From Fimicolochytrium jonesii (taxonomy: Eukaryota): 64,000 nt of DNA. The stretch spans positions 124,001 to 188,000 of the forward strand of contig NW_026515687.1 in the NCBI RefSeq assembly GCF_025526975.1, given 5' to 3'. The notes under the pieces were generated by a model, which saw only the letters and a list, made by a program, of their open reading frames with translations, searched no databases and was not told the DNA's origin. Of this stretch, positions 1,093-26,119 are shown one piece after another (within the stretch, counting starts at the first letter, position 1; each line of letters starts with the position of its first letter). The translations under genes and the position numbers were made by a program.

Positions 1093-2189
1093 CTACAAAA
1101 GCCCATACGCCAAGGGTCCTTGACGATGGATTTCGGCCAAACCGTCCCAGAGGGGGCCGCCAAACGGGTTTGGGGACCGGGGGCTACCGTGCTCGTCAAG
1201 CAAGTCCGTGGGAAAGTAGAAGGTCAGCCGTTTGGAGCATGAGCTGTATTCGGGAAGCTTTTGGCCCTCATCCAAGCAAAAGAGGACGTAGATTCGCGTC
1301 GGGAATACGTGAGAACCCGTGATGGCATGGACGAAATTGTCCAGCGTCTGGTCCTTTGGAACTTCTTTCAATGCACATCGGGAGAGCTGCGCGGCGGTGT
1401 TGACGAGATCCCGGCTCATTGCAGATTTGCACGTGAATTCCAGATGGCGGGAAATCTCATCATACATGAGCAGTACAGGCGCGAATAACGACATGACGAC
1501 TCCGCATGGGACCGAATGGAGGATTCCGACAAATTCCACGCCCATCCCCTTTACCATGTCGGCCATCGGGCCATCCCTACTTGCGTACAGCACGTGGTAT
1601 TCGATCGAACGCGAATGGCGGTCGGCGTTTTCCCAGAACGTCCAGAGATCATTCCAGCTGCGGCGAAGCGGCTGCGGACGGTGTGCATCATTCACGTAAG
1701 TTGGAACATGAATAGGCACACCCAGTCGCTCAACGCATGCCCTGAGTCTACCGACGGAAGAACGGACTCGGTAAACCGTTCACTGAGGGCGGTCAAGAAC
1801 ACTGCAACGTCGAGTACATACCTGGCCTCCCATGTTTCACGCTTTGTTTTGCGGTCGATCCCCTTGTCACGCATACCCAACAGTACCTCGCCGAGTTCCT
1901 TGTCGAAGAGCTTCACCGTTTCCGCGGTGATCTGCCAATAATGGGGGAGGTGGATACCCGAGCAATTGTGGCTGTGGTGGAGGTAGTTTACAAAAGCAGG
2001 ATGGAGCGTTGTCGGAACGATTCGAGCCCAGCGATAGGCACATACAATGACCCGCCCAAGCATCTCGTACATGCCGTCCAAGCGATACGCCAAGTTGTGA
2101 GGCGATGCCACCGGTAGCAGCATATCTTCGCCTTCAAACCACGGCGTATCCTCCTTGCCGAAGTAGTGATCGATCAGGGCATGAAACTT
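1093..2189 (-). pseudogene. HECT-domain-like protein, 5'-truncated at the telomeric tract; one intron (1672-1721)
   Basis: Joining ORFs 1692..2123 and 1093..1719 through a GT..CAG intron keeps frame (SDW|PLRRSW). Motifs resemble HECT ligases: FHALIDHYF..PWFEG..LLP, YEMLGRVIVCAY..LHPAFVNYL, FVHAITGSHVFP..LPEYSSCSKRL (candidate catalytic Cys). The upstream frame runs into the telomeric repeat with no further ATG. Confidence 0.55.
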
Positions 2190-2239
2190 GGGGTTAGGGT
2201 TAGGATTAGGGTTAGGGTTAGGATTAGGGTTAGGGTTAC
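2188..2239 (+). repeat. Short interstitial telomeric repeat tract
   Basis: TTGGGG TTAGGG TTAGGA TTAGGG TTAGGG TTAGGA TTAGGG TTAGGG TTAC. TTAGGG is the canonical telomere repeat of many fungi. Confidence 0.92.
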
Positions 2240-2479
2240 AAGACCCCCTGGGTTGGGTTTTATTATTGGGTTGCCTGGAACCCTAGGGACTTAGAAATTT
2301 TCGAGTTTCTTGGTTTTGGGCAGTGTTCTACAGTTCAGATTCCAGGTTCCAAGGGGTAGGGTGCCGGGGGTGTGAGCTTTCTAGACGCCGACGAACTCTA
2401 TGGTAGTATACGTGGTGATGATGGAAAATTTATCTGTCATCATATATGTAAACGGAGCGGATAGTCACAACCAGCAATC

Positions 2480-3385
2480 ATGCGCGCGCTTGTCATCTCT
2501 TTGATCATCTTCGTGATCATTTTACTCATTGGTATCTTTGGTTGGACACAGGGTTGGTTCAAGGGCATCTTCAAGTCCGCTGCCAAGGCAGGATCAGGAT
2601 CAGGATCAGTATCTGGCACAGGATCAGGTACCAACACGCCAACACAGTGTCTCAAAACAGATACATTCCCCGTCACCGCCGTCGGCAAAACGGGCCAAGG
2701 AAGCTGCCCAGCCCCCCAGACTGGCACCGTCACAGCCATGTGTCAAGCGGATGGAACCTTCGGCCCAACCGATACATCTGGATGCGTCACCCCGAACACC
2801 ATCTCGGCTGGTGGCTATTGTGTTAACAATGGTGTCAACGTGTGGGACGAATGGCAATCAACGACGGGCAGGGCAAAATGCAACACTACAAACAACATGT
2901 GGACCGTGGAGTGCCCTGCTGGTACGGTGAAGACGAGCCTGTTCACCATGAGCAACACAGGTAGGGGCGGGGAAGGTGCGGTGTGTAGCCCAAAGGTTCA
3001 GGATGCCACAGCATGTCTGGGCGGGAAGCCAGGGATTTGGGACGAGCAAGCTCTGCCTCCGTCTGGAAAAGCCGCCTGCGACAAGACGGCCAACGTATAC
3101 GTCGGCGGCTGTCCTGCAGGAACGGAGAAGCATACCCTATTCAAGATGACGTATGGCGGTTACGGCGGGGAGGCTGCTCTTTGCGACGCTGGTACCGCCG
3201 CAGGTGGGGTGTGTTTGTATGGGGTACCTAACAGATGGGACGGTATCACAGAAACGTATGGAAACGCGAGCTGCGATAAAACTACAAATATCTATAGCGT
3301 AACCTGCCCTCCCGGGACTACCAAGATTCCAATCTACAACATGACGAATTCGAACCGTGGCGGTGAAGGGGCTATATGTGTCTGA
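2480..3385 (+). CDS. Type II membrane-anchored Cys-rich protein with a HormR/HRM-like domain and three ~60-aa 4-Cys repeats
   Basis: N-terminal hydrophobic helix, then a GS linker. FPVTAVGKTGQGSCP..GTVTAMCQADGTFGPTDTSGC resembles the hormone-receptor domain. Three repeats follow: C..WD..G.A.C..T.N.Y/W...CP.GT.K..L/I(F/Y).M....GGE.A.C. Confidence 0.8.
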   Translation: MRALVISLIIFVIILLIGIFGWTQGWFKGIFKSAAKAGSGSGSVSGTGSGTNTPTQCLKTDTFPVTAVGKTGQGSCPAPQTGTVTAMCQADGTFGPTDTSGCVTPNTISAGGYCVNNGVNVWDEWQSTTGRAKCNTTNNMWTVECPAGTVKTSLFTMSNTGRGGEGAVCSPKVQDATACLGGKPGIWDEQALPPSGKAACDKTANVYVGGCPAGTEKHTLFKMTYGGYGGEAALCDAGTAAGGVCLYGVPNRWDGITETYGNASCDKTTNIYSVTCPPGTTKIPIYNMTNSNRGGEGAICV

Positions 3386-3542
3386 AGTCCATGAATAATA
3401 GTCATGTGACCTGCCGCGTTTCAGTATGAAATTTTTTTTGGGAATCCAAAAAAAGATTTGCACCAAACGCGTATCCTCTCTTTACCAAAAAGGCGCGAGG
3501 ACACAAAGCGCGCCCCTTATACGCTCGCGAACACTACGAGTA

Positions 3543-4283
3543 ATGGCCGACCTAGAATCGCAGTACATACGAGACCGATACCTCGACAATGATCCAATGG
3601 ACCTGATAACTGAAGACGAATGCCGAGAGATCTGCTCATATATCCATCACACGCATGATGCGGACGTCGTGAGAGCCCTTCTCCGTCGTCACCCGGATCT
3701 ATGTCGGTGGCCAGAGTTCCCCTACTGCTCTCCGGTCCACTGCTGCATCCTGAACCTTCTCGTTCAAGCTGGGCTCGATCACCAGCATGCCATGACGTCC
3801 CTTAACAGAGCCGTCGTTTGGGAAGATTGGAGGGCTCTTGCTAGCCTCGCCAAGGTGAAACGCTTACCAACGACAACACTATTCGGAATCTTCCTCTGGG
3901 AAAGGGCGCTGCGGCATATTTCTCAGGACACCTTGAACTTCATGGTTACGCTTGACGATCCGTCCCCTTTCCTGCCGTCGTGTAGCTATGTGATACAGCA
4001 GAAGGCGATCACTTACGAAAACGCTGTCTTCGTTAAACCGTGGTCTGCAGAGGAAGCTGCGCTTGATATAGGAGACGTACCACTTAGTGTAGAGGATGGA
4101 TGCCGCGATGTGGATGAGTCTGATACACCTTCTATGATCAGGAGCCTTATCCGCCTTTGTCCTGACATCCTTCATGATCTCAAGCTGACCCCGCGATATC
4201 GTAGACCGTCGGTCATAGAGACACTCTCTGCTCTAGGTTGTTCCGGGCTGACGTATGAGGGCCACATCTGTGTAGACTTGTAG
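3543..4283 (+). CDS. Hypothetical protein, possibly degenerate ankyrin-like helical repeats
   Basis: Intronless 246-codon ORF from ATG 3543 (MADLESQY..). HDADVVRALLRRHPD and CILNLLVQAGLD are weakly ankyrin-like. Confidence 0.55.
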   Translation: MADLESQYIRDRYLDNDPMDLITEDECREICSYIHHTHDADVVRALLRRHPDLCRWPEFPYCSPVHCCILNLLVQAGLDHQHAMTSLNRAVVWEDWRALASLAKVKRLPTTTLFGIFLWERALRHISQDTLNFMVTLDDPSPFLPSCSYVIQQKAITYENAVFVKPWSAEEAALDIGDVPLSVEDGCRDVDESDTPSMIRSLIRLCPDILHDLKLTPRYRRPSVIETLSALGCSGLTYEGHICVDL

Positions 4284-4377
4284 CGTTTGCCTCTAGGGGG
4301 AAGGCAAAGCAGATGTAGATGGTATATAATGCAGGCCCTTTGTGCTTCTTACGCCTTACACAATCCGATACCTAAAC

Positions 4378-5046
4378 ATGAAAGACGAGGATCCCCCAGC
4401 GTACAGTCTGGACCAGCTCAATACTCGTCCTGATGCTACCTCAACCCGATTGAGCTCAGATGAGCCGGAGACGGGCAACGCGAGAACTGATCTGAGCAGA
4501 GCGGCCGCAGCTGGGCGTAAACGTACCGCGTTGTTGTGCCTGCTGTTCGTTGCTATCGCGTGCTTTTCGGCGATTGCCCTTGTCATATCTTCTCGAGCGT
4601 TGAACGGAAGGGTAGACGACTATATTGCCGCCCAGCGATCCGCTTTGGAGCGGAGACTTGACACTGAGTATGACCATTGTGGTTGCCTCCTGCTTTCTTT
4701 AGGAGACTATGACACACCGGTCAACGTAAGCGTATCATGCAGTACGGCCGTACGAAGCACCGTAACAAGATATCGCGGCCAACCTATTCCCCGCACGGAC
4801 ATAGAACAATCATGCTATTGGCCAAAGAGAGTGGATGAGCTAGTCTACTTCGGTTCTCGCGCGTCATTCCTAGAGTACGAGGAAGATTGGAGATGGAGCC
4901 GTGCACATTCGCCGGACACCGGCTGGGGACTGATCAAGGAACCAGGGCTCAAGACGCTCTTTGCTATTGGGGTTATAGCAGCTGTGCTCAATCTCTTCAC
5001 ATTCTGTTGTGTTCTATGTAGCTTAGCTCATCAAACAACTGGTTAA
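4378..5046 (+). CDS. Hypothetical two-TM membrane protein with an N-terminal PPxY motif
   Basis: MKDEDPPAYS start, two hydrophobic stretches (ALLCLLFVAIACFSAIALVIS; TLFAIGVIAAVLNLFTFCCVLC) flanking a Cys-containing loop. Confidence 0.65.
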   Translation: MKDEDPPAYSLDQLNTRPDATSTRLSSDEPETGNARTDLSRAAAAGRKRTALLCLLFVAIACFSAIALVISSRALNGRVDDYIAAQRSALERRLDTEYDHCGCLLLSLGDYDTPVNVSVSCSTAVRSTVTRYRGQPIPRTDIEQSCYWPKRVDELVYFGSRASFLEYEEDWRWSRAHSPDTGWGLIKEPGLKTLFAIGVIAAVLNLFTFCCVLCSLAHQTTG

Positions 5047-5353
5047 ACGGTTACACACACGATGGTGGCGCTGCGAGGCTCAAGCCTGTGGATTAGCCCC
5101 GGGCGTTCATTTGTGCGCTCACAGCTGTACTCGCATGTGGGGCTAGCAGCCGCGGACCTCAACATTCGCGTTGCGATACGCAAATGTGCCAAGACATAGA
5201 AACCTCTACTGTCGCAACCGTTGTTGCTTCCTTCCTCAAGCAACCGTTGTCTTGGCACGTTTAGATAAGAAGAAGGCCCGAGACGTTCCCCGCCCCAAAG
5301 TGAAAGGAAACCCGCAACGCAACACCAACCTTTCATCAACCTACCGCAGCATC

Positions 5354-5869
5354 ATGCCTGAGAAGAAAACCCTGTGGCACATCGCCCCCGACCACGCTAA
5401 GAGTTCAATCTCGACTGGTGGTCTTCGCTCCGGAAAGAAGTAAGACGTGTAACTGTATGTATCAAACTGTCTTGCACGCTAATCATCGCCGATGTGCTGC
5501 AGGGGAATGTACGGTCCAGCCGTCTATGCCACCGACAGCGTCCAATCTTCTAGCCGCAAAGCTCTCTGTGGAAACAAGCGTGTCGCTGTCAAGATTGAGG
5601 CCGATATGGGCAAGATGGCTGTGAGCACACGTGCGGACCCTAAAGGCTATCATCGCAACGCCGGATACGATAGCCTCCACGCTCCCTCCGGAACGGACGT
5701 ACGCAATTCCGAGTACGCCATCTACAACACAAAGAAGATTACCTCCTGGTCTGTGCACGAGCCGAAGAAAAATGGCGGCGGCTACAAGAAGACCGAGTGG
5801 GGCGGTACCAAGTTGGTTCAAGGGCCGGACGGGCGTACATCTCAGTATAGTCACTGGCAAGCCAAGTAG
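5354..5869 (+). CDS. H-Y-E (PARP/Gig2-like) ADP-ribosyltransferase; exons 5354-5439 and 5503-5869
   Basis: The 63-nt intron 5440-5502 has a GTAAGA donor, GCTAAT branch site and CTGCAG acceptor. The spliced product MPEKKTLWH..SISTGGLRSGKKGMYGPAVYATDS..SRKA..GYDSLHAP..NSEYAIYN shows the H, Y and E catalytic positions. Confidence 0.75.
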
Positions 5870-5889
5870 TGTAGAATACCTACGGAAGC

Positions 5890-6553
5890 ATGGATACTTG
5901 TGCTCTACCATACTTGTGCTCTACATGTACTTTACGAGCCGAGCGTCATGGCAGCTTCAGATATAGTAAACATTGTTTTGATCCTACTCCCGAGATCTAC
6001 AGCATCCACCAGCTTTGACTCTTCTGCGTTGTGGGGTGAGATATTGTTTTCTCAACGCTCAAGAAAGGCATCAGGCGGCCCTTCAAAGCCCTTGATAGTT
6101 ACATGTCACGTGAGGCAACGATTGTCTTCAAGCCGCTTGGTGAGCACGATACTGCTCTGTTACGGGAGCTCGATGCCAAATCTGAGGTTGCCCTCTACAT
6201 TGATAAGCTACGAGCGCAGATAGGGAAATCCGCAAGACAGGACAAAGCCGCCTATCGTGTGACACTCTATTGAGAGCTGCCGTGCCATGACGGACAGACC
6301 GTGTTACGTAATCGGAGACTCATAGCAGAGAAGTTGGAGCGAATCACGGCTTCCCTAGCGGAGCAACCAATCAGCCTTGATAATCTGAAGTTGTATGGAA
6401 TAGTGGGAAAACAGTTCCTACTGTACTTATCCGACGTTGATCGGCGCAGTGCCCCTTTCTCGTCATTGCTCAGTATCAGGAGGACATCAACGCGGAACAA
6501 GCACAGTTCCTTAAAAGGGTCATACAGCGGCTGGCTTTCGAGAAAAGTGTGTA
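5890..6553 (+). pseudogene. Decayed ORF of unknown function
   Basis: One reading frame from ATG 5890 is interrupted by three TGA codons (6016, 6037, 6271). A probable frameshift near 6445 leads into ..PFLVIAQYQEDINAEQAQFLKRVIQRLAFEKSV*. There is a 16-bp tandem duplication at 5894-5924. Confidence 0.4.
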
Positions 6554-6603
6554 AAGGGGGTAACCTCCTCTCTCAGTTGCCTCCGTGGCGGTTCCGCAAC
6601 ATT

Positions 6604-7014
6604 ATGTTTCAACAGGACGTACTGCGACACGTCTTTACACTGACAGACACCGATACGCTACACATCGTGCGCTTATCATGTCGTCTTGTCAAAGATCTGA
6701 TAGCCAGTGTGATCAGAGCACGTTTGATCAGGCTCGCTTTGCGGCGATGGAAAAGGAAGCTAATGCAATGCGAAGGTACAGTGTTCAGCCCGGCTGATGT
6801 TGGAATCGTAGGATGGCCGTTTGAGAAGGACATGTACAAATCCTACTCCTTTGACGTCGATAAGTTGACCAAACCAACGGGAGCGCACGTGCCACGTTTC
6901 TGGAACGGTGGCCTCATTTTGAAGGAGTACTATATGACATACGCGCCTCCTTTCAAGGTGGACATGACGGATGGCGAGTTCATCGTTGGGGTGACTGAAA
7001 AGGGTCTACGATAG
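6604..7014 (+). CDS. Small protein with an N-terminal F-box-like motif
   Basis: MFQQDVLRHVFTLTDTDTLHIVRLSCRLVKDLI matches the F-box pattern (D/E)VLxxIFxxLDxxxLxxxRLxCR. Confidence 0.55.
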   Translation: MFQQDVLRHVFTLTDTDTLHIVRLSCRLVKDLIASVIRARLIRLALRRWKRKLMQCEGTVFSPADVGIVGWPFEKDMYKSYSFDVDKLTKPTGAHVPRFWNGGLILKEYYMTYAPPFKVDMTDGEFIVGVTEKGLR

Positions 7015-7213
7015 TATCAACGCCGGGGGACAGCTCTTCGTCACTTGCTCTCTCCTCAGAGATGCTTATATAGATCCTTTGGGTTTACTGCTCCTCGTCA
7101 AACTGCCGTGGATACTTTTGAAGGCCTTGTATAGAGGCTGCTTGTATGTACATTCACTTTCATAACTTTGAATAAGCAAAGCCAGTTCATGTGACATGCG
7201 TAAGCAAAGTAAG

Positions 7214-8073
7214 TTACTCCACTGCCATACGCTTCTTTGCGAGCTCAACGTATTTGGCGTTGATCTCAAACGCAAGAAATCTGCAGCCGGGAAGCCTAGA
7301 ACAAGCCACCATCTCTGTCCCTGCCCCTGCAAAGGGAATGAGGACATTCGTTTCTATGCCTTCCTCAGTATGCATAGCGCTCTTTACAAGACGCTCGGTC
7401 AGTTGCAATGGCTTCTGAGAAGGGTGGGCAACGCCTTCCGATTTGCCGCAAGCCCCGCTCAAAGCTGAGACTTTGATGACGTCACGTGGTAACGCACCGT
7501 CCTCATGGATATTGTAGGCGGTTGCGACATTCCGCGAGTTTATACGCCCAGTAGAATCAGCAGCTCGGACCCTGCCAGGGCTGTACTTTTTGTACTCCTC
7601 AGTATAGGCTTCTCGCACTAGATCACGGTTAAACCTTGACCCTGGAAAGCGACACAAAAGGATGCTTTCATGCGATCGCTGAAAGCTCTTTGCCTTTGGA
7701 TTTGTCTTGTTCGTATCGTGCCAAACAAGCCAGTCCACTTTCCACGTGATGGCTTTGTTACCATGTATCCGGGCGTAGATCAGAGCCAACGTGGTGGACA
7801 GACCATAGATGTAACATGTACCTGTCCTCTTGAGAACACGGTGGCATTGGAGGATCCAATCCTTGCACCAAGCGAGATACTCATCCTCTCGCCTCTTATC
7901 ACTATCGTCCCAAAGTCCTTCCCAAAGTTGTACGGCGGGTCACATATGATGAGATCAGCTGACTCGGCCTGAACCGAATGGAATGCCTTTACGCAATCAG
8001 TGTGATGGACTGTATTGTCATAGGCGTACTTGACTACTACAGGTAGAGATGCAGGTACAGGAGTCTCTGCCAT
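7214..8073 (-). pseudogene. Beta-class N6-adenine/N4-cytosine DNA methyltransferase with a 1-bp frameshift near 7908
   Basis: ADLIICDPPYNFGKDFG, then after a shift DSDK..EYLAWCKDWILQCHRVLKRTGTCYIYG..VWHDTNK..FQRSHESIL..HPSQKPLQLTERLV..VLIPFAGAGT..FEINAKYVELA. The catalytic DPPY precedes the FxGxG SAM motif, which is the beta order. Confidence 0.9.
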
Positions 8074-8089
8074 GTCTGATATCAGGTTC

Positions 8090-8734
8090 CTACTTTACCC
8101 TAATCCGCGCTGGGTTGTATACGTCAATAGGAGGATCCCTACTTTTTATATCAGTCTCAACGCGGACGCATATCTGCTGCTGAGTTCGTGTATCGTCTTC
8201 CCTCCTCGCCTCCGTGACAATGACTGATTGCCTTGCGAACCATCTGAGAACTCTCCATAGTTTCAACCCCACATAGGATGTGATCCCAACTACAAGAGGC
8301 CCGTTGATGAGGACGAATGTGATGGCAAATCCCTTGATCAAGCCGCTGCTCCACACGCATTCAAAGTGTTCATCCAAGGCCACCCCAAAGGAGGCCAGCT
8401 GAAAGACGAATGTAAAGGATGCCACCACGAGGAGGCCGAGTATGACAAACGCAGCAGCAAATTGAAGGGCAGGCCACTTTTCATACGGCGCAGAATTGAC
8501 CAACGCAATAGAGGCGAGTGCAGAAACAAATATGGTAAGGTCAGCGACTCCAGAGGCGAACGGGGCGCATTCTTGCGCAGTCTTGGCGCGGATATGTTGA
8601 GCAATCGACTTGCGGGCATGAAGTAAAGCGTAACCGGTAAGGCCAATAGAGAGGGCGAGACGTAGTGTAGCAACGATGAAAGGCCAGTTAGGTCTAATGA
8701 CTTGGGCTTTGAGAGGTTTGTATGGGGTAGCCAT
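8090..8734 (-). CDS. Hypothetical four-TM membrane protein
   Basis: Intronless ORF (MATPYKPL.., alternative ATG at 8806) with four hydrophobic segments. Confidence 0.6.
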   Translation of the reverse strand: MATPYKPLKAQVIRPNWPFIVATLRLALSIGLTGYALLHARKSIAQHIRAKTAQECAPFASGVADLTIFVSALASIALVNSAPYEKWPALQFAAAFVILGLLVVASFTFVFQLASFGVALDEHFECVWSSGLIKGFAITFVLINGPLVVGITSYVGLKLWRVLRWFARQSVIVTEARREDDTRTQQQICVRVETDIKSRDPPIDVYNPARIRVK

Positions 8735-8847
8735 TTTGTGTGGGATGTTGGCAAGTAGGTAACTGCTTCTGGCTCTGCGATCGAGACGTATGTATGCTAG
8801 CACCATATCGGCTCCGTATCACGTGATTGCGCTCAATTGCGCTGGCG

Positions 8848-8863
8848 AGTTTATCGATAAACT
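8848..8863. promoter_or_regulatory. Palindromic motif AGTTTATCGATAAACT (copy 1 of TTTATCGATAAA)
   Basis: Perfect 16-bp palindrome in the short gap upstream of the minus-strand 4-TM gene. The same core occurs at 9924 and 12016. Confidence 0.5.
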
Positions 8864-9855
8864 TACGCAAGGAAGAGTGGCTGCCTGGTAGTTATCCTGG
8901 CACGACACACTGAACAAAGAGTTATTGAGTCGGCACATCGGCGACAATGGGCGTGGCCGCAGTTTAGCGCCACATTTACTCGATCCGTCAAACATACTGG
9001 GCACATGCCTATGGTAGGGGCCTCCTCCGCCTCCTCGTTGATTGCCAAGAGGGCAGCGGCCACGTCACTATTCTGACCCGGGTCCCTGTTTCTGTCTGTC
9101 ATCGCCAGGTTATCCAGATCGGTCAAGAGATCTTCCACCGGGTATCGTCTGTGAGTGTATGAAGGAGGTTTCCTCCAAAGTTTTCCTTGAAACATGGTCA
9201 GCTGTATGGAGATACCTTGGGTGTGCACACCATAGTACACAATGCGATCAAGCTGGACGACAGCGGCTAGCTTGTCTCCTGGGCCTACTAGGTCACCTCT
9301 TGGATCTGTGACCTTTGAGGGTATGAAATCTTCAATGATGTCGCTGGTGTCTCCATCTCGCATAGCAAACTTGAAACAATCGTGTGCTTCCTGAGAGCCA
9401 GGGGGTTTGTAAGGTTGCAGGATGATACTGATTTCGGGAGGGTACTCCTCCAACTCGTTTCTTTTGAAGATGCTAGTGCCGTTGAGAAGCAGGTCGGGCC
9501 GCTGTGCAGACCTTCCTTGACTCCGGATGGTCCATGTAGGATAGGCCGCGTCAATAAGAACCTTGACGCGGCGCTCGAGATCCAATAGAAATCTATGTTC
9601 GCGACTCTGTAAGACAGTCTGGGCCCTCACTTTAATCTTACCCATGGTCCTCCAGTCGGTGGTACCGAATCGGCCACCAAGAGTAGTCAAAGAGTAAGCT
9701 GGTAAAGTAAGATCTTTCAAGACAAAGGTCAGCTTTACCGCGGAGGGTCCATAGAGGACATCGTGGATGCGGCAATTCTCGAGGGTGACAAGCCGACCCA
9801 GCTGGAGACTGCTGAGATCCACAGCATCGGGTTGAAGAACTCTTAGAGCGGGCAT
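8863..9855 (-). CDS. C-terminal C3HC4 RING-finger protein with an N-terminal region resembling NCLDV ssDNA-binding OB-fold proteins
   Basis: RING: CPVCLTDRVNVALNCGHAHCRRCADSITLCSVCRARITTRQPLF. The N-terminal VLQPDAVDLSSLQLG..YPPEISIIL..FKFAMRD..LVGPGDKLAAVVQLDRIVYY..GISIQLTMFQGKL recalls gp2.5-like giant-virus SSBs. The RING is certain and the SSB call is tentative. Confidence 0.75.
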   Translation of the reverse strand: MPALRVLQPDAVDLSSLQLGRLVTLENCRIHDVLYGPSAVKLTFVLKDLTLPAYSLTTLGGRFGTTDWRTMGKIKVRAQTVLQSREHRFLLDLERRVKVLIDAAYPTWTIRSQGRSAQRPDLLLNGTSIFKRNELEEYPPEISIILQPYKPPGSQEAHDCFKFAMRDGDTSDIIEDFIPSKVTDPRGDLVGPGDKLAAVVQLDRIVYYGVHTQGISIQLTMFQGKLWRKPPSYTHRRYPVEDLLTDLDNLAMTDRNRDPGQNSDVAAALLAINEEAEEAPTIGMCPVCLTDRVNVALNCGHAHCRRCADSITLCSVCRARITTRQPLFLA

Positions 9856-9923
9856 GATTACTCCCAAAGTAGTGATCCCGAGAAGTTTTCGCACCGCATC
9901 CTGGGATACTTATAGCGGCCTTG

Positions 9924-9935
9924 TTTATCGATAAA
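9924..9935. promoter_or_regulatory. TTTATCGATAAA palindrome (copy 2) between the divergent RING and ankyrin genes
   Basis: About 70 bp from the RING ATG (9855) and about 78 bp from the ankyrin ATG (10013). Confidence 0.5.
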
Positions 9936-10012
9936 AGCATCAAATAGATGTAGATGACGAATACGTTTTGGAAGCTGTCGCCACATCCCTTTGCTCACCA
10001 TCATACAACGAT

Positions 10013-10969
10013 ATGGCTTTCCCATTCCATCTGCTCTTAGCGCATTGCAAAGGAGAAGTCGTGGTGAATCTTCTCTGCATATCCAGTGTCTATAGAATGG
10101 TTACCCACGCCGACGTGCTAAGGGCCTACCCAACCGGTCAAGATATCGCCAAGTTGCCGAGGCCTCTATGGACAACGTACATCCGCCTCGGCATGGCAGA
10201 CATGCAGAACGCGATAGAGAAGGCAGCGGAACATGCTCATCTGGATGCGATGAAGCTTCTTCTCCGGCCTTGTCACGATGCAACTTACGCCACCCTTTTG
10301 AATAAAGTTGGTCCCCTTGAGTGCTTGGACGATGATGGTGAGATTGAAACCATTCTCGAGTCTCCGCTCGCACACGCTAGCCGCTTGGGTAATCTGGATA
10401 TGATCAAGCACCTCATATCCATTGGAGCCGACGTGAACAGTGACCCGTATGCATTCCGGGACGCATGCACTTATGATCACTTGAACGCTGTCGAGTTTTT
10501 TGTGCGCATCGGCGTCAATGATGACGCAAAGCGATCGGGATTCCTATTCGCTTGTTTTGAAGGACATCTGGACGTCATACAACATCTCGTAAACAAGGGC
10601 TGCCGGGTAGACGCCGAGTGCATTGGCTGGGCAGCACAACGCGGGAAGTTCAGCAAGAAGAATTCCCTTCAGATCATCAAGTATCTCGTTTCTTTAGGGG
10701 ATTGTTTAGCCTTTGATGACATCCTAACAGACGCCATAGAAAGTGAAGCCGATCTGGAGACGATCAAGTATCTAGTATCGCTTGGCGCACAAAAAGACGA
10801 GATGGGCCTTATTGCTGCATGCGCGATGGGTGATACTGAGAAAGCTCAATTCTTCGCACTGCGTATACGGAGGGCCGAGACGCTAGTGGAAGCTGCGAGG
10901 CTGGCGCGTTCTCAGAATTGTGATGATATACATGATTACTGCATGAAGGTAGCGCGCCTGTTTGCGTGA
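10013..10969 (+). CDS. Ankyrin-repeat protein (giant-virus style)
   Basis: Repeats AAEHAHLDAMKLLL, ASRLGNLDMIKHLISIGADV, ACTYDHLNAVEFFV, ACFEGHLDVIQHLVNKG, IIKYLVSLG, TIKYLVSLGA. Intronless. Confidence 0.88.
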   Translation: MAFPFHLLLAHCKGEVVVNLLCISSVYRMVTHADVLRAYPTGQDIAKLPRPLWTTYIRLGMADMQNAIEKAAEHAHLDAMKLLLRPCHDATYATLLNKVGPLECLDDDGEIETILESPLAHASRLGNLDMIKHLISIGADVNSDPYAFRDACTYDHLNAVEFFVRIGVNDDAKRSGFLFACFEGHLDVIQHLVNKGCRVDAECIGWAAQRGKFSKKNSLQIIKYLVSLGDCLAFDDILTDAIESEADLETIKYLVSLGAQKDEMGLIAACAMGDTEKAQFFALRIRRAETLVEAARLARSQNCDDIHDYCMKVARLFA

Positions 10970-10994
10970 GAAAGTATCCGATTCTTTTGTACCA

Positions 10995-12005
10995 ATGCTT
11001 CCACAGAACATGATTCTTTCCGGAACGCTACGAGACCGGCTACTGGGTTGTTTCATCGGCGGCATCGTTGGTGACTCCTTTGGTGCTGCATACGAGTTCA
11101 AAGAACGTGACAGCTATGAAGTGTCTCCCAACATGGAAACCACTGTATTCAATATGCCACCGGGTTCATTTACTGATGATTCGTCCATGATGCTATGTCT
11201 AGCTGCATCACTTATTGAAACGGGTACCTTTTCCCCTACAGATCAGATGGAAAGATATGCACGGTGGCGAAAAGAAGGTTACATGTCCTCAGACGAAAAG
11301 AAAGGATGTTTTGATATCGGGGTCACAACGAGCAGGGCGATCGCACGTTTCCTTTTCAACCAAGAGCTCCGCGAGCGGAAAAGAGAAGCCGCAGAAGCCC
11401 CACCTTTGACCGAGTATCATGGCCTGTCTGACGAGAATGATAGTGGTAACGGCGGGATCATGCGACTAGCGCCGGTACCCATCTTCTATCATAGGGACAT
11501 AGGAAGGGCCGGCTACTATTCTGCACTCTCCTCTAAAGTAACTCATGCGTCTCCAGAGTGCATCGAAGCAGCGGGTGTACTCGGCAAAATCATAGCAAGC
11601 CTTCTACAAGGAGTTTCAAAGGTACACGCTGTAGTAGAGCTACCTGCATCTCTCGTAAGCGGATTGACGTGTGAAAAGGTCATACACATCTGCCAAGGTA
11701 CATTTCTCCGGAAGCAGCGAGACGAAATCAAAACAAGTGGGTATGTCATCGACACGTTGGAAGCAGCGCTGTAGGCTTTCTCTGTGACAGATTTCTATGA
11801 GCAAGGAATGCTTCTTCTGGCCGGTATGGGCTGCGATGCGGACACCGTGTGCGCCGTATATGGCCAGATCGCAGGCGCCTATAATGGTTATGAGGCCATT
11901 CCGAAACGGTGGGTAAACGCGCTCCAGCGAATGTCACTGATAGCGGAGATTGCGACAAGATTGCTTGAAGTTACCGAAGTGATGTCTACGGCGTTGGGGC
12001 GGTGA
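10995..12005 (+). pseudogene. ADP-ribosylglycohydrolase (DraG/ARH family) with a single in-frame TAG at 11772-11774
   Basis: GDSFGAAYEF, FTDDSSMMLCLA, GCFDIGVTT, SGNGGIMRLAP, SKVTH, GYVIDTLEAAL*AF and DADTVCAVYGQIAGAYNG..IPKRW all lie in one frame. The stop replaces the Trp typical of LEAALW (TGG>TAG). Confidence 0.9.
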
Positions 12006-12015
12006 GCGGTTTGAG

Positions 12016-12027
12016 TTTATCGATAAA
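12016..12027. promoter_or_regulatory. TTTATCGATAAA palindrome (copy 3)
   Basis: Intergenic, about 90 bp upstream of ATG 12118. Confidence 0.5.
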
Positions 12028-12117
12028 GAGGGGGTGTATGCATACGTATAGCAATGTGTCGCGTCGCTTTGCAATCATCCTCGCACCTACTCACATCAAC
12101 AAGATCCCCTTGCAGCT

Positions 12118-12675
12118 ATGTCCGGCGATGAAAGCATCGAATGGAACATTCAGAGCATCGCTGCAGCCCGAGGGCGGTTGTTGGAAAGTACCGGACCAAC
12201 GCACATATTGTTTGCGAAACTCCTTTGGCGAACTGCGGAGATCAGTTTGATGAGATGCCAGCTTCGTTCCGGATGCATTCGTTGGACAAAGGCCGACGGG
12301 GGAGAAACAATCATGGCTATATCAGCACGTGCCCTGCAGCAAACTTACGAGAGGATTCGGACCGATGTGGGCATTGCAAAGGAAAACGACATGGAGTCGG
12401 AGGTGGTGTCTCAGGATAAGCAGGATGATACATACGACATCGAGAAGCAACTCTATTGCCTGACAGAGTTCCTGAACAGCCTCTTTGCAGGCGACTGTTT
12501 CGCATTGGTTGGCAAGACCTTTCTCGCTGACACCGTGGCAGAATGGTACAGCAAGTTGACCTTCATAGTCGCTACCATGGTGCGTTCCGTTATTGTGTAC
12601 CAAGTCCTAGAACTGGGCTTTCCCCGCAAAGCGGACGACCAGGAAAAGCTCGCGCGCAGAGCGATGTCCGAATAA
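12118..12675 (+). CDS. Hypothetical protein, 3' end truncated by retrotransposon pol sequence
   Basis: Intronless ORF. Its last codons (from ~12661) are the antisense of RT thumb sequence (FVQGYSDIA). Confidence 0.5.
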   Translation: MSGDESIEWNIQSIAAARGRLLESTGPTHILFAKLLWRTAEISLMRCQLRSGCIRWTKADGGETIMAISARALQQTYERIRTDVGIAKENDMESEVVSQDKQDDTYDIEKQLYCLTEFLNSLFAGDCFALVGKTFLADTVAEWYSKLTFIVATMVRSVIVYQVLELGFPRKADDQEKLARRAMSE

Positions 12676-14360
12676 CCTTGCACGAAGTCGAGGAAGTAGT
12701 TCGTGAACCCGAGAAAGCTTTGAACTCCTTTTGTTGACTTTGGAGTAGCCCAATCCTTAATAGCTTGGATTTTCGAGGGCGCGATGCAAACACCATGTCT
12801 TCACAATATGTCCACACCATTCGAGTTCTTCTTTAGCCCATATGCACTTTGAAGGCTTGATGAAAAGGGCGTGTTCTTCAAGTTTCTTCAGGATACAATC
12901 GACGTGTTCCCGATGATCGGCTAAGGTCTTGGAGAAAATGAAAATGTCGTCCAGGTAGGTAGCAAGGAAATCGTCGTAATCTTTATGGAAGATCTTATTC
13001 ATAGGACGTTGAAATGCAGCAGGTGCGTTGGTAAGTCTGAACGGCATGACCAAATACTCGAAATGTCCGAAGCGAGTTCGTATTGCCGTTTTTTCTCGAT
13101 CTTGTTTTCGTATAAGAGGACAATGGTATGCTTCTCGAATATCGATAAGCGTAAACCATTTACAACCTTGAATGCGATCCCTCATCTCACGGATATTGGG
13201 TAAAGGAGTGCAATCTTTCTTGGTGACAGCGTTGAGACCTCGGTAGTCCCAACAGATGCGTAATCCCCCATCTTTCTTTTTCGCAAAGACGACACTAGCT
13301 CCCCAGGGACTTGAGGAGTGTTGTATCCATCGTTTTTCGAGCATCGAACTGATTTGTTTCTTATGTTCAGCGAGTTCTTCTTTGTTCATGTGCCGAAGAG
13401 GTTGCCAAACGGGGTCAGCACCTTCAGTGAGTTCGATCTTGAACTTATCTTCTCGCGATCAGGGGGTAAACCTTTCGGTTCCTTGAAGAGCGTATTGACG
13501 TATTTATTTAGGATATCTTTAAGATGTCCTGGATTTCCTTTAAGCTCTTGAGGAGCATCCAGTATTTCGTTAAGAGCGAGGCGACAGACCGTGTCTTTTT
13601 CAAACTTGTTCCGTCGCCAAGCCTTATCGAATCGCTTAGAAGTCATTTCTGTGACTTGAGGATTGCAAAGGGCATTGGCTTGAGCGAATCAAGAAACATA
13701 ATGAGGTGCAGCTTGTAGAGGACGTGTATCCACAGGTTTAATGATCCGAACAGGTCGAACAGGTCTTTTATCGTAGACCGGATCTTGTTGTACATCGAAG
13801 TAAGGGTTGTTGTGTTTCGGGATATATTCGACATCTTCCCAGTTTCTTGAAGTTCTTTTGCATTTGATGGTGACAGACTGCGGTGCGTTTGGTATAGGGC
13901 CATGATTGGTCCAGCAAAGGATAGGTAAGGTACTCATCGAGAATTGTTCAGCGTAATTAAAGAAACGTCAAAAAGGCGTTCCAATAATAGCGTCGTAAGC
14001 CAGATTACTGACTAGCCAGGAGAGTTGTCCAACTAAGAAAAGCGACTGAGATTCAAGATCCCATAGATCTAACTTTTCCGAAACGACCGTGTTGAGAATC
14101 ATGTAGGATTCTTTGTCGGCCAGCCATATCTGCTTTGGTTCAATACCTTTCTTGGAAAATTTGTGCTTTTCGACGAATGTCTTGTCAAGAAATAACCCAG
14201 TTGCGCTGCTATCGAAAAGAACACGAGCAAACTTGTTTCCGATGCGACAATGAGAGACCCAGAGTCCAGCAGACAGTGGTTCGAAGGCAGGTTTGTCGGT
14301 AGGATCGTATGTTGTAGGCCGAGCAGAGCTACCGAGGGGCTCTATCGACCTTGGAAAAAA
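12661..14360 (-). pseudogene. pol (aspartic protease + reverse transcriptase), frameshifted
   Basis: RVLFDSSATGLFLD (DSG mutated to DSS), SSPWGASVVFAKKKDGGLRICWDYRGLN, VMPFRLTNAPAAFQR, YLDDIFIFS, KPSKC, VQSFLGFTNYF. Several frameshifts. Confidence 0.92.
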
Positions 14361-15679
14361 CTCAAAGATTGATTTGTAGTAGTATTCGTAGTATTCGCAG
14401 AGTTGACGGCGTCATCGAGAATTTCCGTAATGCGTGACCCAGCATCAACCTGCTTGGCTGAACCTTGTTGTTGATTAGGTTGGCGACTGCGCTGCGGAGT
14501 CTGAGCGCCACGACCGCGCTGTCGAAAACCACCGCGTCGGTTCTGGGTTTGCGAGCCTTGCTGTTGATTTTCAGGATTTGACCAGCATTCAACTCTCCAA
14601 TGTCCCATTTTGTTACAAAGGGGACAAGGAGTCGTTGGACGTTGACGAGGAACATGAGTAGTTTGCCATTGTCCACGTCGACGAAAGGGTTGTCGACACT
14701 GGTAGGGAACTTGACCTGCAGTGAGACGGCTCACTCCAGGGGGATAGTATGACGTACCGAGGGCATTGAGCCCAAAGGTCATATCATCTAAGTCTTGCTC
14801 GAATTCCGTAATTTGAGGATTGGTGTAAGGGGCGAATCGTCCGCCACAACCACCGCCACGACTACCTCGACCGCGGCTGGCTCCATGGCCTCCACAAGCA
14901 CTCGATGCCGAGGCAATTGGACGAGGCGTATTGGCTTGGTTGCCATCAGTGAACCCGTGAGCCACATGAGCACGACGAGCTGCAGTGATAGCTTGATCGA
15001 GAGTGATAGCGGTGTTGATATTGGTAGTGCCCGAGACTTCGAAGTTCGTCACGGCTTCAGCAAGATAATGACCGATTACCGTATTCTTGAGAAGACCGGC
15101 CTTGAAGTATCGAATCTGATTGATAAGGGGAATGGTGCCTTGAGTGTTATCGAGACGATGAGCGGCTTCAAGCTCATTATTGGTGTCCCGAAACTCCTTG
15201 ATATATTTTTCGAGAGAGTCACCAAGCTTAAGACCGGAGAGCTTGAGCTCAATAGTATTACGCAAGTTGCGAGGATAAAAGTGAGGGACAAGAGCCGTTT
15301 CGAAAGCTGTCCAACTTGCGGGAGCGCCAGAGGTGTAAGTCGTATTGTACCACTCAAGAGCAGTACCCTTGAGATAGGTAGTGAGCGTAGGGGCATACTC
15401 TGCCATAGTAAAGGGTATGGCGTTGGCAGCTCCAGTACCGTCTGATCCAGCTTGTACAGCCGGGACAGTAAGAGACTCGAGAAAGTTGTGGTGAGACGTA
15501 ACGAACTCTTCGATCTTTTTGGCAGCTTTGGCGCCATCGTATTCGACGAGCTTGTTCTTGCGAGCGTCCATAAGAAGTCTGAAACGTTCGGCTTGTTGGA
15601 CATCCTGCGTAACAGCACGCTCCCAAGTAGCGAAAGCAGCTGCGACAGCCGCAACGATAGCTTGAGTTTGTTGGTCCAT
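14342..15679 (-). CDS. Gag (capsid + CCHC zinc knuckle)
   Basis: YLKGTALEWY..SWTAFETALVPHF capsid motif, CPLCNKMGHWRVEC knuckle and RG-rich segments. Confidence 0.88.
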   Translation of the reverse strand: MDQQTQAIVAAVAAAFATWERAVTQDVQQAERFRLLMDARKNKLVEYDGAKAAKKIEEFVTSHHNFLESLTVPAVQAGSDGTGAANAIPFTMAEYAPTLTTYLKGTALEWYNTTYTSGAPASWTAFETALVPHFYPRNLRNTIELKLSGLKLGDSLEKYIKEFRDTNNELEAAHRLDNTQGTIPLINQIRYFKAGLLKNTVIGHYLAEAVTNFEVSGTTNINTAITLDQAITAARRAHVAHGFTDGNQANTPRPIASASSACGGHGASRGRGSRGGGCGGRFAPYTNPQITEFEQDLDDMTFGLNALGTSYYPPGVSRLTAGQVPYQCRQPFRRRGQWQTTHVPRQRPTTPCPLCNKMGHWRVECWSNPENQQQGSQTQNRRGGFRQRGRGAQTPQRSRQPNQQQGSAKQVDAGSRITEILDDAVNSANTTNTTTNQSLSFFQGR

Positions 15680-15760
15680 TCTTGCTTGTGAACGAGTGTA
15701 AGGGGGACGTCCGGTAGAGGGGCAACGTTGACGAGGAATGTCTTGGTGATGCTAGCGGTA

Positions 15761-15773
15761 GGTGGTGCTACCA
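15761..15773 (-). other. Primer-binding site, tRNA-iMet-like
   Basis: TGGTAGCACC immediately follows the LTR end ..TTACA and is close to the Ty1/Ty3 iMet PBS TGGTAGCGCC. Confidence 0.65.
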
Positions 15774-16276
15774 TGTAACGTCAGAGGAAACGTAGATGAT
15801 ATTGGGCTTTTCTGAGAGGGCTGAGAGCAGTGTATTGTAGTGAAGAAAAAAGTAAGAAGCTCTTCGCAGCGGCCGCTCGGCTGACAGCTTTATATATGCG
15901 CTGCCAGTGGGGCTTGCGTGGCTTTAGTGAGGCTTGGCGCCTTATGTAATGTATCACCGAGAGCTCGGGTGGCCAGCCCGGGTCTCGGATGAAGTAGAAG
16001 TAAAGAGATATAATATGAAATACAAGTGGAGATGAGATATCCCCGACACTGAGAGCAGTGTATTGTAGTGAAGAAAAAAGTAAGAAGCTCTTCGCAGCGC
16101 CCGCTTGACTGACAGCCTTATATATGGGCTCTCAGTGGGGCTTGCGTGGCTTCAGTGAGGCTGGGCGCCTTATGTAATGTATCACCGAGAACCCGGGTGG
16201 CCAGCCCGGGTCTTGGATCAAGTAGAAGTAAAGAGATATAATATGAAATACAAGTGAAGATGAGTTATCCCCGACA
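15774..16276 (-). repeat. 5' LTR (15774-16048) plus a tandem partial LTR copy (16049-16276)
   Basis: The minus strand starts TGTCGGGGAT and ends CGTTACA. The 228-bp block 15821-16048 is repeated at 16049-16276 with about 15 substitutions, and each copy has a TATATAA. Confidence 0.88.
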
Positions 16277-18573
16277 ACCTACGCCGACCCCAGTAACGAA
16301 TTCGGGTTGTCTACCTTTGATCACACTACGGCGCGCGCAACAGCAACAGGGACGTCTCCGATGCTGTCTGCGATGCTTAGTGACGGGTCGGGTAATGCTG
16401 ATAATGTTTATCAGCGGATCGAGACCCATTTTGGCACACTTGCACGTAAGTTACAAATGGTTCAGTTGCCTTTGTCCTCATGTAGCCGGCCACTAATGTG
16501 TGGTATTATAGAAACATGCCCCAAACGCCGCATGTACTTTACCTCCAGGGAGGATGTCGTCGCGTTTGTCAAAGAACGCTACAATCAGGCATTCATGAAG
16601 GAGTGTCACCAAACACGTTTTCGCGAGATATCGGCCTTCCATGAGGGATCCATACTTTGCGGCGCTGGCCAAAGCAAAAATGGATTAAGGTCAGCGAGAC
16701 ATGTGGGGAATGTATGCCCCTTACCTGGAATTCAAGTGGCGCAAAAAGGGGCAGAAGCTGTCTCTAGGTAAGGTGACCGGACCGTGTTCCCGCATGCATT
16801 GACACAGCGCACTCATCTATGTATTATAGACGACATTTTTGCTCCGGTTCTCCCAAATGACCCTCTCGCTATGCGGCCCGGGGCGCGGATCCACCAGTTT
16901 GTTGACAAGGCTGCATGGGCACAGAACCGGGACGGAGACCACCAGCCCACACCAACACCTGGCCCAACCCACACTACCACACCCAGCGCCATCTCAAACC
17001 CCAACATTGGCTTTGCTTTCGGCGGAGTTGACGACGGCGGCGGTGGAGTTGAAACCATGGTGGACAGCGGCGGTGGAGTTGAAATCATGGCGGACAGCGG
17101 CGGTGGCAGTGGAGTTGAAATCATGGCGGACAGCGGCGGTGGCGGTGGAGTTGAAATCATGGCAGACAGCGGCGGTGGAGTTGAAATCATGGCAGACAGC
17201 GGCAGTGGAGTCGAAACCATGGCAGACAGTGGCGGCGGTGGTGGCAGCGGCGGCGGTGGAGTTGAGGGAGTTGACAAGGACCAGGCGCGACAGATGATGA
17301 AGACTACCTATGATGAAAAGCGGCTGCTAGATTTCGTTGCGCAAATGGCAGAGACCATCAACACACTCCGCACCCAGACAGATGACTTGGCAGCTCAGCT
17401 CTCTTCGGCAGCTCAGCTCTCTTTGGCAGAGCCCAACATCGAACCAGTTGAACCCGTCGAACCCGTCGCAGCCGCCACTACTGAATCTCCTACGCACGGG
17501 CGCGTCAACAATGAAGAGCTAAACCCCGACCCCTCTGCAATGAATATAGACGTTGACGGTTGGTGGAACCGGCCGCCGGCAATGTGGAAAGGCGAGCCGT
17601 GGCCAAAGGTGGATGAAAAGCAAAAATATGCCGGTGGACCAGTGGGCTCTCGGTTGCGGCAGAAAGGAAGGAGAAGGAGACCTGAGGATACCGGCAGGGT
17701 CGTCGATCATCGAACCCGCTATCATTCGGCGGATTGTCAAAACCGATTGCTGGCTGAACGATCAAGCTGTCAACAGGTCCGTTCCCGCTTTCCCGTGCGA
17801 GTGTGTGTCATTGTTGTCACTCACTGATGCTTGTCTCTGGATATATAGGTGGTGCGCGTTGTTACAAGCCAGGTCATCACGGCGCCCAACCATTTATCCG
17901 CCACTGCTAGCCGTTGGATCCACTTGGCTCCAAAGTGTCAAAATGGCACGGACATCCAATGTCCCTATTCGGCTTGTTCCGGTAAGAAAAGTTACTTAAC
18001 CGTACCGTACTTAACTAAACTAACTTTCCTTTTTTGTTTTATGTTAAGCGGTCGATCAACGTTGCAGAGTACAACATACTGCTATTCCCATCAAACCCAG
18101 ATAATCTGCACTGGGTCCTGTTCCCAATACTTGTCGCGGTGCCGGCGCCCAAGTCCGCAAAACCCCTGGGCCCCCCTGGTTCGCCATTAACCAGACACGA
18201 AAACGTATTCCTCGTTTTATTTGACTCAAAGCCTCGCCCGAATGATGACGACTACGTTGATAAGATGGCCAATATCGGCTCCCTCTTGTGGGATTGGTAC
18301 ATTACGGCCACTGAAGCCCCGCTCAATCACACACCGACACCGACGGTTGATGCCCTCTTCACGCCTCGACAGACCGATGACCAGAACTGCGGTACATTTG
18401 TGTGCATGATGGCTGATGCCATTGCCCGTGGTGCGGTGGGTGAGGCCTCGGAATCATGGGCCGATACGCAGACCGCCGTCAATGCCCGCCATAATATCGC
18501 TCTGAGCATCGTTTTGGCGACGTTTCTTAATGATGGGGATGCTCATCAGTATATGAATGTGACGAAGTGCTAG
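16277..18573 (+). pseudogene. Multi-exon Ulp1/C48 SUMO-protease-like gene (transposon-associated type), 5' end abutting the LTR
   Basis: CWLNDQAVN (~17750), LHWVL, VLFDSK and PRQTDDQNCGTFVC give the H-D-Q-C C48 signature. GTAAG donors and frame breaks lie upstream. Confidence 0.7.
17020..17270 (+). repeat. Coding minisatellite, 27-33-bp units (GGAGTTGAAATCATGGCGGACAGCGGCGGT..)
   Basis: About 7 units encoding GGGVEIMADS repeats. Confidence 0.9.

Positions 18574-23795: not shown

Positions 23796-26119
<2,324 letters not shown>

Follow-up and report, generated by a model that had tools for sequence, protein, structure and literature searches.

A small PARP-like gene with a predicted intron and a disrupted ADP-ribosylglycohydrolase gene in a probable giant-virus relic of a chytrid-like fungus

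Do an ADP-ribosyltransferase gene and an ADP-ribosylglycohydrolase gene that share one foreign island of a fungal genome form a writer/eraser pair, or are they independent of each other? The question is raised by a 64,000-nucleotide stretch from Fimicolochytrium jonesii (RefSeq assembly GCF_025526975.1, contig NW_026515687.1, positions 124,001 to 188,000 of the forward strand), here called the window, whose own numbering is used throughout. A preliminary description of the sequence had proposed that the two genes formed a toxin/antidote or counter-defence module. Our analysis indicates that the island is probably a piece of giant-virus DNA (Nucleocytoviricota) in decay within a chytrid-like fungus, and that the transferase and the hydrolase are likely to be viral accessory genes independent of each other rather than a matched pair.

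The transferase gene runs from an ATG at 5354 to a stop codon at 5867-5869 and, once a predicted spliceosomal intron at 5440-5502 is removed, encodes a protein of 150 amino acids (aa). The preliminary description had this splice, a product of about 150 aa and the motifs LWH, GMYGPAVYA, GYDS and NSEY, all of which were recovered. The intron's length of 63 nucleotides (nt) is divisible by three and so keeps the reading frame; the gene was searched and folded in read-through form, with an X at each of the three intron stop codons. Against a profile built from distant relatives only, with no window sequence included, exon 2 alone scores 70.4 bits and exons 1 and 2 together (X at the junction) score 87.2 bits, a value reached by none of 500 shuffled exon-1 peptides and none of 1,000 random stop-free 28-mers from the window. 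The splice choice 5440-5502 is the best among the six frame-compatible GT-AG choices scored, the next reaching 58.1 bits. The 21 intron codons align to a gap in all five distant relatives and coincide with the low-confidence stretch of the structure model, where residues 29-45 have a predicted local distance difference test score (pLDDT) below 50.

A contig from a soil run (X1) aligns to 5447-5878 with 30 substituted letters and five gap letters. All five gaps fall inside the intron and none in exon 2, which argues that the soil relative carries the intron too and that it is non-coding there. The intron of a host kinase gene near 24360-24425 shares the GCTAAT...CAG build. The intron pattern by itself is unspecific, with five matches in the first 13 kilobases (kb) of the window, one of them within methyltransferase coding sequence; it is homology that carries the case for the predicted splicing. 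The close relative P0001 (95% identity) was called from a Met inside exon 2, as by an intron-blind gene caller.

Both sequence profiles and the structure model connect the transferase with the PARPs. A search of a whole library of 1.84 billion representatives returned six proteins with E-values (E) of 0.001 or less: P0001 and five others at 26-39% identity, four of which have weak to strong PARP matches and one a weak Tox-ART-HYD1 match. Another 58 proteins came from a profile search; many of them have PF00644, and those with names are from corals, a rotifer and a foraminifer. The best match of the family profile in the PDB is PARP4 (E 3e-17), and PARP3, tankyrases and PARP1/2 were also found. 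The AlphaFold2 model (predicted template modelling score 0.69) has core blocks with pLDDT 79-96 in both exons, and the intron and the tail are disordered. Foldseek matches the model to PARP2/PARP1 (E 5e-6). Structural comparison gives Z 9.3-9.7 for PARP1, PARP2, PARP13 and PARP3 over 117-124 residues, with root-mean-square deviations (rmsd) of 2.9-3.4; the top match, to PARP1, has Z 9.7 and rmsd 3.4 over 124 residues. RES-type toxins (Z 8.4), diphtheria toxin (7.0) and DarT (5.8) rank lower. The modelled protein has the PARP catalytic fold, the split β-sheet of ADP-ribosyltransferases (ARTs), and its His, Tyr and Glu stand in register with those of PARP4 in the profile alignment, so that the H-Y-E ART seen by the preliminary description is borne out at the level of the model. 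The triad is invariant in those relatives that have a residue at the position (His 45/45, Tyr 55/55, Glu 53/53). Where PARPs have their second Tyr, the protein has Lys, as do 38 of 54 relatives.

The read-through sequence with X gave no Pfam family and lies below Pfam PARP detection, and exon 2 alone gave no Pfam family, no PDB sequence match and no related loci in viral or metagenome contigs. The protein is basic (isoelectric point of the exons 9.7-10.0) and has no signal peptide, its N-terminus being charged and its 150 aa forming a single domain, so it would act inside the cell. The Lys that PARP1 uses for chain building is missing, which makes transfer of single ADP-ribose units the likelier activity. 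A secreted A-B exotoxin of the diphtheria-toxin type was considered and rejected, given the missing signal peptide, translocation domain and receptor-binding domain and a Z-score for diphtheria toxin below those of the PARPs. Separately, P0130, P0131, P0132, P0127 and their kin constitute a family of small PARP-like proteins of eukaryotes, in which H-x-T, Y and E do not vary and the second-Tyr place mostly holds Lys; one member is fused to a ubiquitin-like domain.

The second gene, described earlier as an ARH-family gene about 5 kb downstream of the ART, is indeed an ADP-ribosylglycohydrolase (ARG) gene 5,126 base pairs (bp) away: PF03747 spans its full length (E 7e-64), and the motifs TDD, D, GNG, TH and DxDT are all kept when the stop is read as X. 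The nonsense codon reported for it is also real. It is codon 260, where 17 of 17 homologues have Trp, and since it falls before the DxDT metal ligands (D281, D283 and T284) the product is predicted to be dead. An intron removing the TAG is ruled out, as the frame is collinear with the 17 homologues. RNA editing of stop codons is known from filamentous ascomycetes; here it was set aside because other island genes are broken in ways that editing would not cure.

The nearest solved relative of the hydrolase is Tri1 (6DRE, E 9e-50), and DraG matches with E 1e-22. Dozens of homologues have 44-69% identity, some of them from Thoreauomyces and Sorochytrium. A quick tree of 75 rows, which included 65 of the 120 listed homologues and left out L021, places the hydrolase in a 54-row clade (Shimodaira-Hasegawa-like approximate likelihood ratio test, SH-aLRT, 100) apart from the bacterial rows, as sister to P0003 (96) and near the Thoreauomyces protein. 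The Sorochytrium protein and two giant-virus loci belong to the same clade: L001 carries a major capsid protein, A32 and VLTF3, and L002 is a 327-kb virus record. At 9998-13534 of L001, the same-clade hydrolase gene has the A32 packaging ATPase gene on one side and the major capsid protein gene on the other. Neither the hydrolase N-terminal part nor the island methyltransferase gave a match when searched singly for related loci.

The setting of the two genes is likewise virus-like. Closely packed open reading frames (ORFs) fill 10.5 kb of the window (about 2240-12700), from a telomere-like tract to a truncated Ty3 element near 12660. For the N-terminal part of the RING protein (8863-9855), the nearest clusters are 93-100% viral, most commonly from Nucleocytoviricota (scores 0.91-0.94), and the DNA methyltransferase, ankyrin and F-box-like genes fit this picture. 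With genes of nucleocytovirus affinity in a gene-dense and intron-poor stretch, the island is likely to be a Nucleocytoviricota fragment. Base composition does not mark it out (GC 51% vs 54%). In soil run X1, 42 short contigs lie on the island, most at less than 95% identity, and the island ORFs that flank the transferase on both sides are among the covered ones. There is no cover at 900-2111 and 12616-13000, which fits the island edges, though lack of cover proves nothing. The X1 contigs do not have the TGA at 6271, and near 7907, the point at which the methyltransferase passes from one frame to the other, there is a length difference of one base. At least three island genes are thus broken in the window, by the hydrolase stop, the two-frame methyltransferase and the TGA at 6271, and the dead hydrolase, as one of several, needs no special explanation beyond general decay. 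Of 18 listed differences between methyltransferase and soil contig, 12 are silent, which suggests that this gene was under selection until recently.

Could the hydrolase nevertheless have served to reverse the transferase's mark, in a dedicated viral module for addiction, superinfection exclusion or timed host take-over? We regard this as unlikely. The two genes lie on the same strand of the same island and both occur in one soil run. For Aeromonas phages, toxin-antitoxin pairs of an ART and an ARG have been predicted (PMC9503650, section 3.7.1), and elsewhere the passages cited from that paper give ARTs for about 10% of nucleocytoplasmic large DNA viruses and describe ARGs as sporadic genes of mimiviruses and algal viruses. 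Because both kinds of gene are thus uncommon in giant viruses, their meeting within 5 kb is somewhat notable. However, they are not adjacent: six ORFs, three of them on the opposite strand, lie in between. A profile of transferase relatives, which would miss other ART clades, found none in 96 hydrolase loci (883 kb, some duplicated), among which only L001, L002 and L017 of the hydrolase's own clade extend far enough upstream for a gene at a distance of 5.7 kb to be visible. No ART family was found in the 68 ORFs scanned from the five closest hydrolase loci, and no transferase relative in the whole 327-kb record G001, in a search without a positive control. The spread of the genes is strongly asymmetric, with one close transferase relative in the 1.84 billion representatives against dozens of members of the hydrolase clade. 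The chemistry also differs. Arginine-ADP-ribose is the substrate of Tri1 and DraG, Tre1 and DraT are of the R-S-E type, and Tri1 has an extension by which it blocks its toxin (PMC8120803, in the part of the text cited). The island writer is of the H-Y-E type, so an arginine writer that matches the eraser is absent; the match to Tri1 starts at Tri1 residue 66 and hydrolase residue 10, so the N-terminal blocking extension is absent as well. Finally, a copy with a whole writer and a dead eraser persists. The specific pairing of writer and eraser put forward in the preliminary description is therefore not supported, and of the proposed module there survives a general role in virus-host ADP-ribose conflict within one foreign island, but not a dedicated pair. 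As to co-occurrence elsewhere, X1 has both genes but no contig that joins them, and the 96 loci gave no case within the limits just given. A bolder version, in which a fungal giant virus has an addiction or superinfection-exclusion module made up of a PARP-like toxin, encoded by an intron-bearing gene and expressed in latency, and a DraG/Tri1-type eraser switched to PARP-type marks, is very improbable; if true, it would be the first such pair in a eukaryotic DNA virus.

Several observations nevertheless weigh against two independent genes in a viral fragment. None of the hallmark genes (capsid, polymerase, packaging ATPase) was found in the island, and for this reason the viral assignment draws on two genes and the gene density. 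X1 contigs cover both genes at about 90% identity, with no contig linking them, and since both are in one soil run they travel together at least in this lineage. The closest hydrolase homologues (P0003-P0007) were not seen in genomic context. The argument from chemistry is not absolute, as ARH3 shows reversal of PARP-made serine marks by the ARH family (to judge from reference titles in PMC8120803). Relatives of the transferase are mostly eukaryotic or unlabelled, which together with the host-like intron means that it may be a captured eukaryotic gene. Taken further, the transferase would be a host antiviral PARP-like gene, with a role like that of Gig2, lying among or captured into viral DNA, and the hydrolase a loose counter-measure. 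The host-type intron and the nearest relatives, small eukaryotic PARP-like proteins of rotifers, corals and a foraminifer, agree with this, as do some relatives that we take to be fish Gig2. A zebrafish Gig2 protects cells from virus (PMC3617106, in the part cited). We nonetheless consider a host antiviral gene unlikely: no named fungal relative is among the six whole-library or 58 profile-search matches, the transferase has island ORFs on both flanks that occur in the same soil run, and genes with introns are also known among the latent genes of giant viruses (61 of 506 in the punuivirus, according to the portion of PMC13692296 used here). A further concern is the active site. Two residues after the triad His the transferase has Ala where 45 of 45 relatives have Thr, and so departs from the His-x-Thr/Ser NAD+ motif; by its sequence, this change may leave the enzyme inactive. 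After the triad Tyr it has Ala-Thr, where 54 of 55 relatives have Phe and Ala. The earlier statement that the ART looks intact therefore holds for the frame and the triad, while an intact NAD+ site is unproven. With at least three other island genes broken, the transferase could already be non-functional, or never have been catalytic in this lineage (a PARP-fold binder), in an island of inert debris. This, too, is very unlikely, because frame, splice signals and triad are whole and the 95%-identical P0001, with six differences in 120 aa, keeps the Tyr, the Glu and the whole basic tail.

If the island is, as we prefer, a decaying viral fragment with two independent accessory genes, host RNA polymerase II would transcribe the transferase gene and the host nucleus would splice it, as its GT-AG intron and host-like branch site suggest and as is reported for latent genes of the punuivirus (PMC13692296). 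The 150-aa product would bind NAD+ through H-Y-E and likely add a single ADP-ribose to a protein or nucleic acid, of host or viral origin, in the infected cell. The hydrolase of the intact virus would strip ADP-ribose from macromolecules, most likely host-defence marks set by the host's own PARPs; PARP1 is kept in 10 of 11 chytrids (bioRxiv 10.64898/2026.07.25.740670, as far as cited). The window copy, cut before the last metal ligands, would be dead, like the nearby frameshifted methyltransferase.

The transferase shares the fold and the His/Tyr/Glu register with the catalytic domains of human PARP1/2/3/4/13 and tankyrase. In contrast to these PARPs, it is a catalytic core of 150 aa without a regulatory, WGR or BRCT domain, and it has Lys at the second Tyr of PARP4. 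It resembles Gig2, the interferon-induced PARP-like protein of fish and amphibians, in size class and motif order, and two of its matches (E 5e-5 and 5e-4, 26-30% identity) are presumably Gig2. However, the C-terminal block DTAW..PP...EE/QQ.C.WD/YD is replaced, the gene is not from a vertebrate, and its closer relatives are unnamed protist and invertebrate proteins. Membership of Gig2 was accordingly rejected, the family being described, in the part of PMC3617106 consulted, by that conserved block and a non-amniote vertebrate origin. The surveyed fungal PARPs are of the PARP1 and PARP-Ubc types, unlike the transferase (cited text of bioRxiv 10.64898/2026.07.25.740670). Its best viral structural match is the PARP-like protein 100L of Invertebrate iridescent virus 6 (E 3e-7, template modelling score 0.56), likewise a small stand-alone PARP fold of a nucleocytovirus; the two are only 20% identical, and the transferase gene stands apart by its predicted spliceosomal intron and its location in a fungal genome. 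The hydrolase shares metal and catalytic motifs with its best solved matches, from the Tre1/Tri1 system of Serratia proteamaculans and from DraT/DraG. In these systems the eraser gene adjoins that of an R-S-E arginine transferase, whereas the H-Y-E writer of the island is six genes away from an eraser without the Tri1 extension.

The island as a whole resembles the giant viruses and viral fossils of zoosporic fungi described as Mycodnaviridae (PMC13533422, main text), which likewise form gene-dense foreign islands with Nucleocytoviricota-type genes; its nearest named hydrolases come from chytrid and blastoclad assemblies. Since the island has no marker gene (capsid, PolB, A32, VLTF3) for placement, assignment to Mycodnaviridae would follow from the host. 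Latent genes of the punuivirus offer a parallel for a host-type GT-AG intron in an integrated giant-virus gene (PMC13692296, as above); the punuivirus is intact and inducible and has a green-algal host, while the island is a decayed fragment.

Features of the island and its edges in the window (positions are those of the window; strand as annotated).
Feature	Position	Strand	Remarks
Telomere-like tract (GGGTTA)x8	2191-2238	+	Probable left island edge
ORF without family	2480-3385	+	Cys-rich repeats; ORF map, Pfam scan
ORF without family	3543-4283	+	ORF map, Pfam scan
ORF without family	4378-5046	+	Membrane-type; ORF map, Pfam scan
PARP-like ADP-ribosyltransferase, exon 1	5354-5439	+	28 codons + 2 nt; first strand with triad His, first helix
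Predicted spliceosomal intron, 63 nt	5440-5502	+	Donor GTAAGA, branch-site-like GCTAAT (5478-5483), acceptor CAG (5500-5502); three in-frame TAA
Transferase, exon 2	5503-5869	+	Triad Tyr and Glu, then basic 33-aa tail
ORF without known family	6040-6273	+	Ends at TGA 6271-6273; TGA absent from two soil contigs
F-box-like ORF, weak	6604-7014	+	PF00646, E 0.08, below cut-off
N6/N4 DNA methyltransferase in two frames	7214-8073	-	Family match; soil contig one base different in length near 7907
Multi-pass membrane-type ORF	8090-8734	-	Hydrophobic stretches in translation; no family above cut-off
DUF5871/DUF2738-like domain (Nucleocytoviricota type) fused to C3HC4 RING finger	8863-9855	-	Family and cluster matches
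Ankyrin-repeat protein	10013-10969	+	Pfam scan
ADP-ribosylglycohydrolase (Tri1/DraG-like, giant-virus/chytrid clade)	10995-12005	+	336 codons, internal TAG 11772-11774
Truncated Ty3-type retrotransposon	12453-16276	-	gag, protease, reverse transcriptase (RT); 228-nt tandem beyond gag; ORFs, Pfam
Palindrome TTTATCGATAAA, three copies	8850-8861, 9924-9935, 12016-12027	.	All intergenic, within island

The interstitial telomere-like repeats at the probable left edge may be a trace of a healed break or of telomere-linked integration. To the left of them, two overlapping ORFs (1093-2168, minus strand) resemble a degenerate HECT ubiquitin ligase (Pfam E 0.026, one piece). At the other end, the Ty3 element ends after RT and joins the last island ORF (12313-12675) directly near 12660; an ORF for a Ulp1-like protease (18019-18573) follows. 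From about 20 kb rightward follow intron-bearing eukaryotic genes for a protein kinase, a DDHD lipase, a neutral ceramidase, an FN3-BRCT protein, which we take to be of the fungal Chs5 type, an XPG-family nuclease, an Argonaute and a doublecortin. Taken with the hydrolase homologues of Thoreauomyces and Sorochytrium, they indicate a zoosporic fungus as the host.

Within the island, the ORF at 2480-3385 is rich in Cys, Gly and Thr, with a hydrophobic N-terminal stretch and three similar repeats ending in GGEG or GGEA; from these features its product could be a viral surface protein. The ORF at 3543-4283 differs from the soil contigs at seven listed positions, all amino-acid-changing and five at second codon positions, a pattern that would indicate either relaxed selection or a wrongly assigned frame. 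The DUF5871/DUF2738-like domain next to the RING finger is presumably of the single-strand DNA-binding type. The perfect palindrome TTTATCGATAAA occurs three times between island genes and not at all in the other 53 kb of the window (chance expectation 0.12), and may be bound by a dimeric factor of the virus or the host. The core of the palindrome resembles the Drosophila DRE element. A scan of viral contigs gave 120 scattered stretches with the palindrome, and none of the 80 contigs listed is enriched in it.

ARTs and ARGs of giant viruses, viral fossils of chytrids and introns in latent giant-virus genes are each already in print. Literature searches returned no paper joining ADP-ribosylglycohydrolase, giant virus and ADP-ribosyltransferase, no description of a fungal virus with a member of this transferase family and, by title or abstract start, nothing on chytrid PARP or ADP-ribosylation and viruses. 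The terms 'ADP-ribos' and 'PARP' do not occur in the main text of PMC13533422, nor 'ribosyl' or 'PARP' in those of its supplements that were searched, and its other gene tables may hold both genes; a term search of bioRxiv 10.64898/2026.10.11.758280 gave no mention of PARP or ADP-ribosylation. We therefore regard the transferase as a new small PARP-like gene with a predicted spliceosomal intron in a probable giant-virus relic of a fungus. As ARTs and ARGs are already known from giant viruses, this is a modest step unless the pairing proves real. It adds to the repertoire of fungal giant viruses a small PARP-like gene that is invisible to gene callers, and a predicted spliceosomal intron common to the soil relative would fit a nuclear or latent phase of these viruses. 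Together, the two genes suggest an ADP-ribose conflict between chytrids and their viruses.

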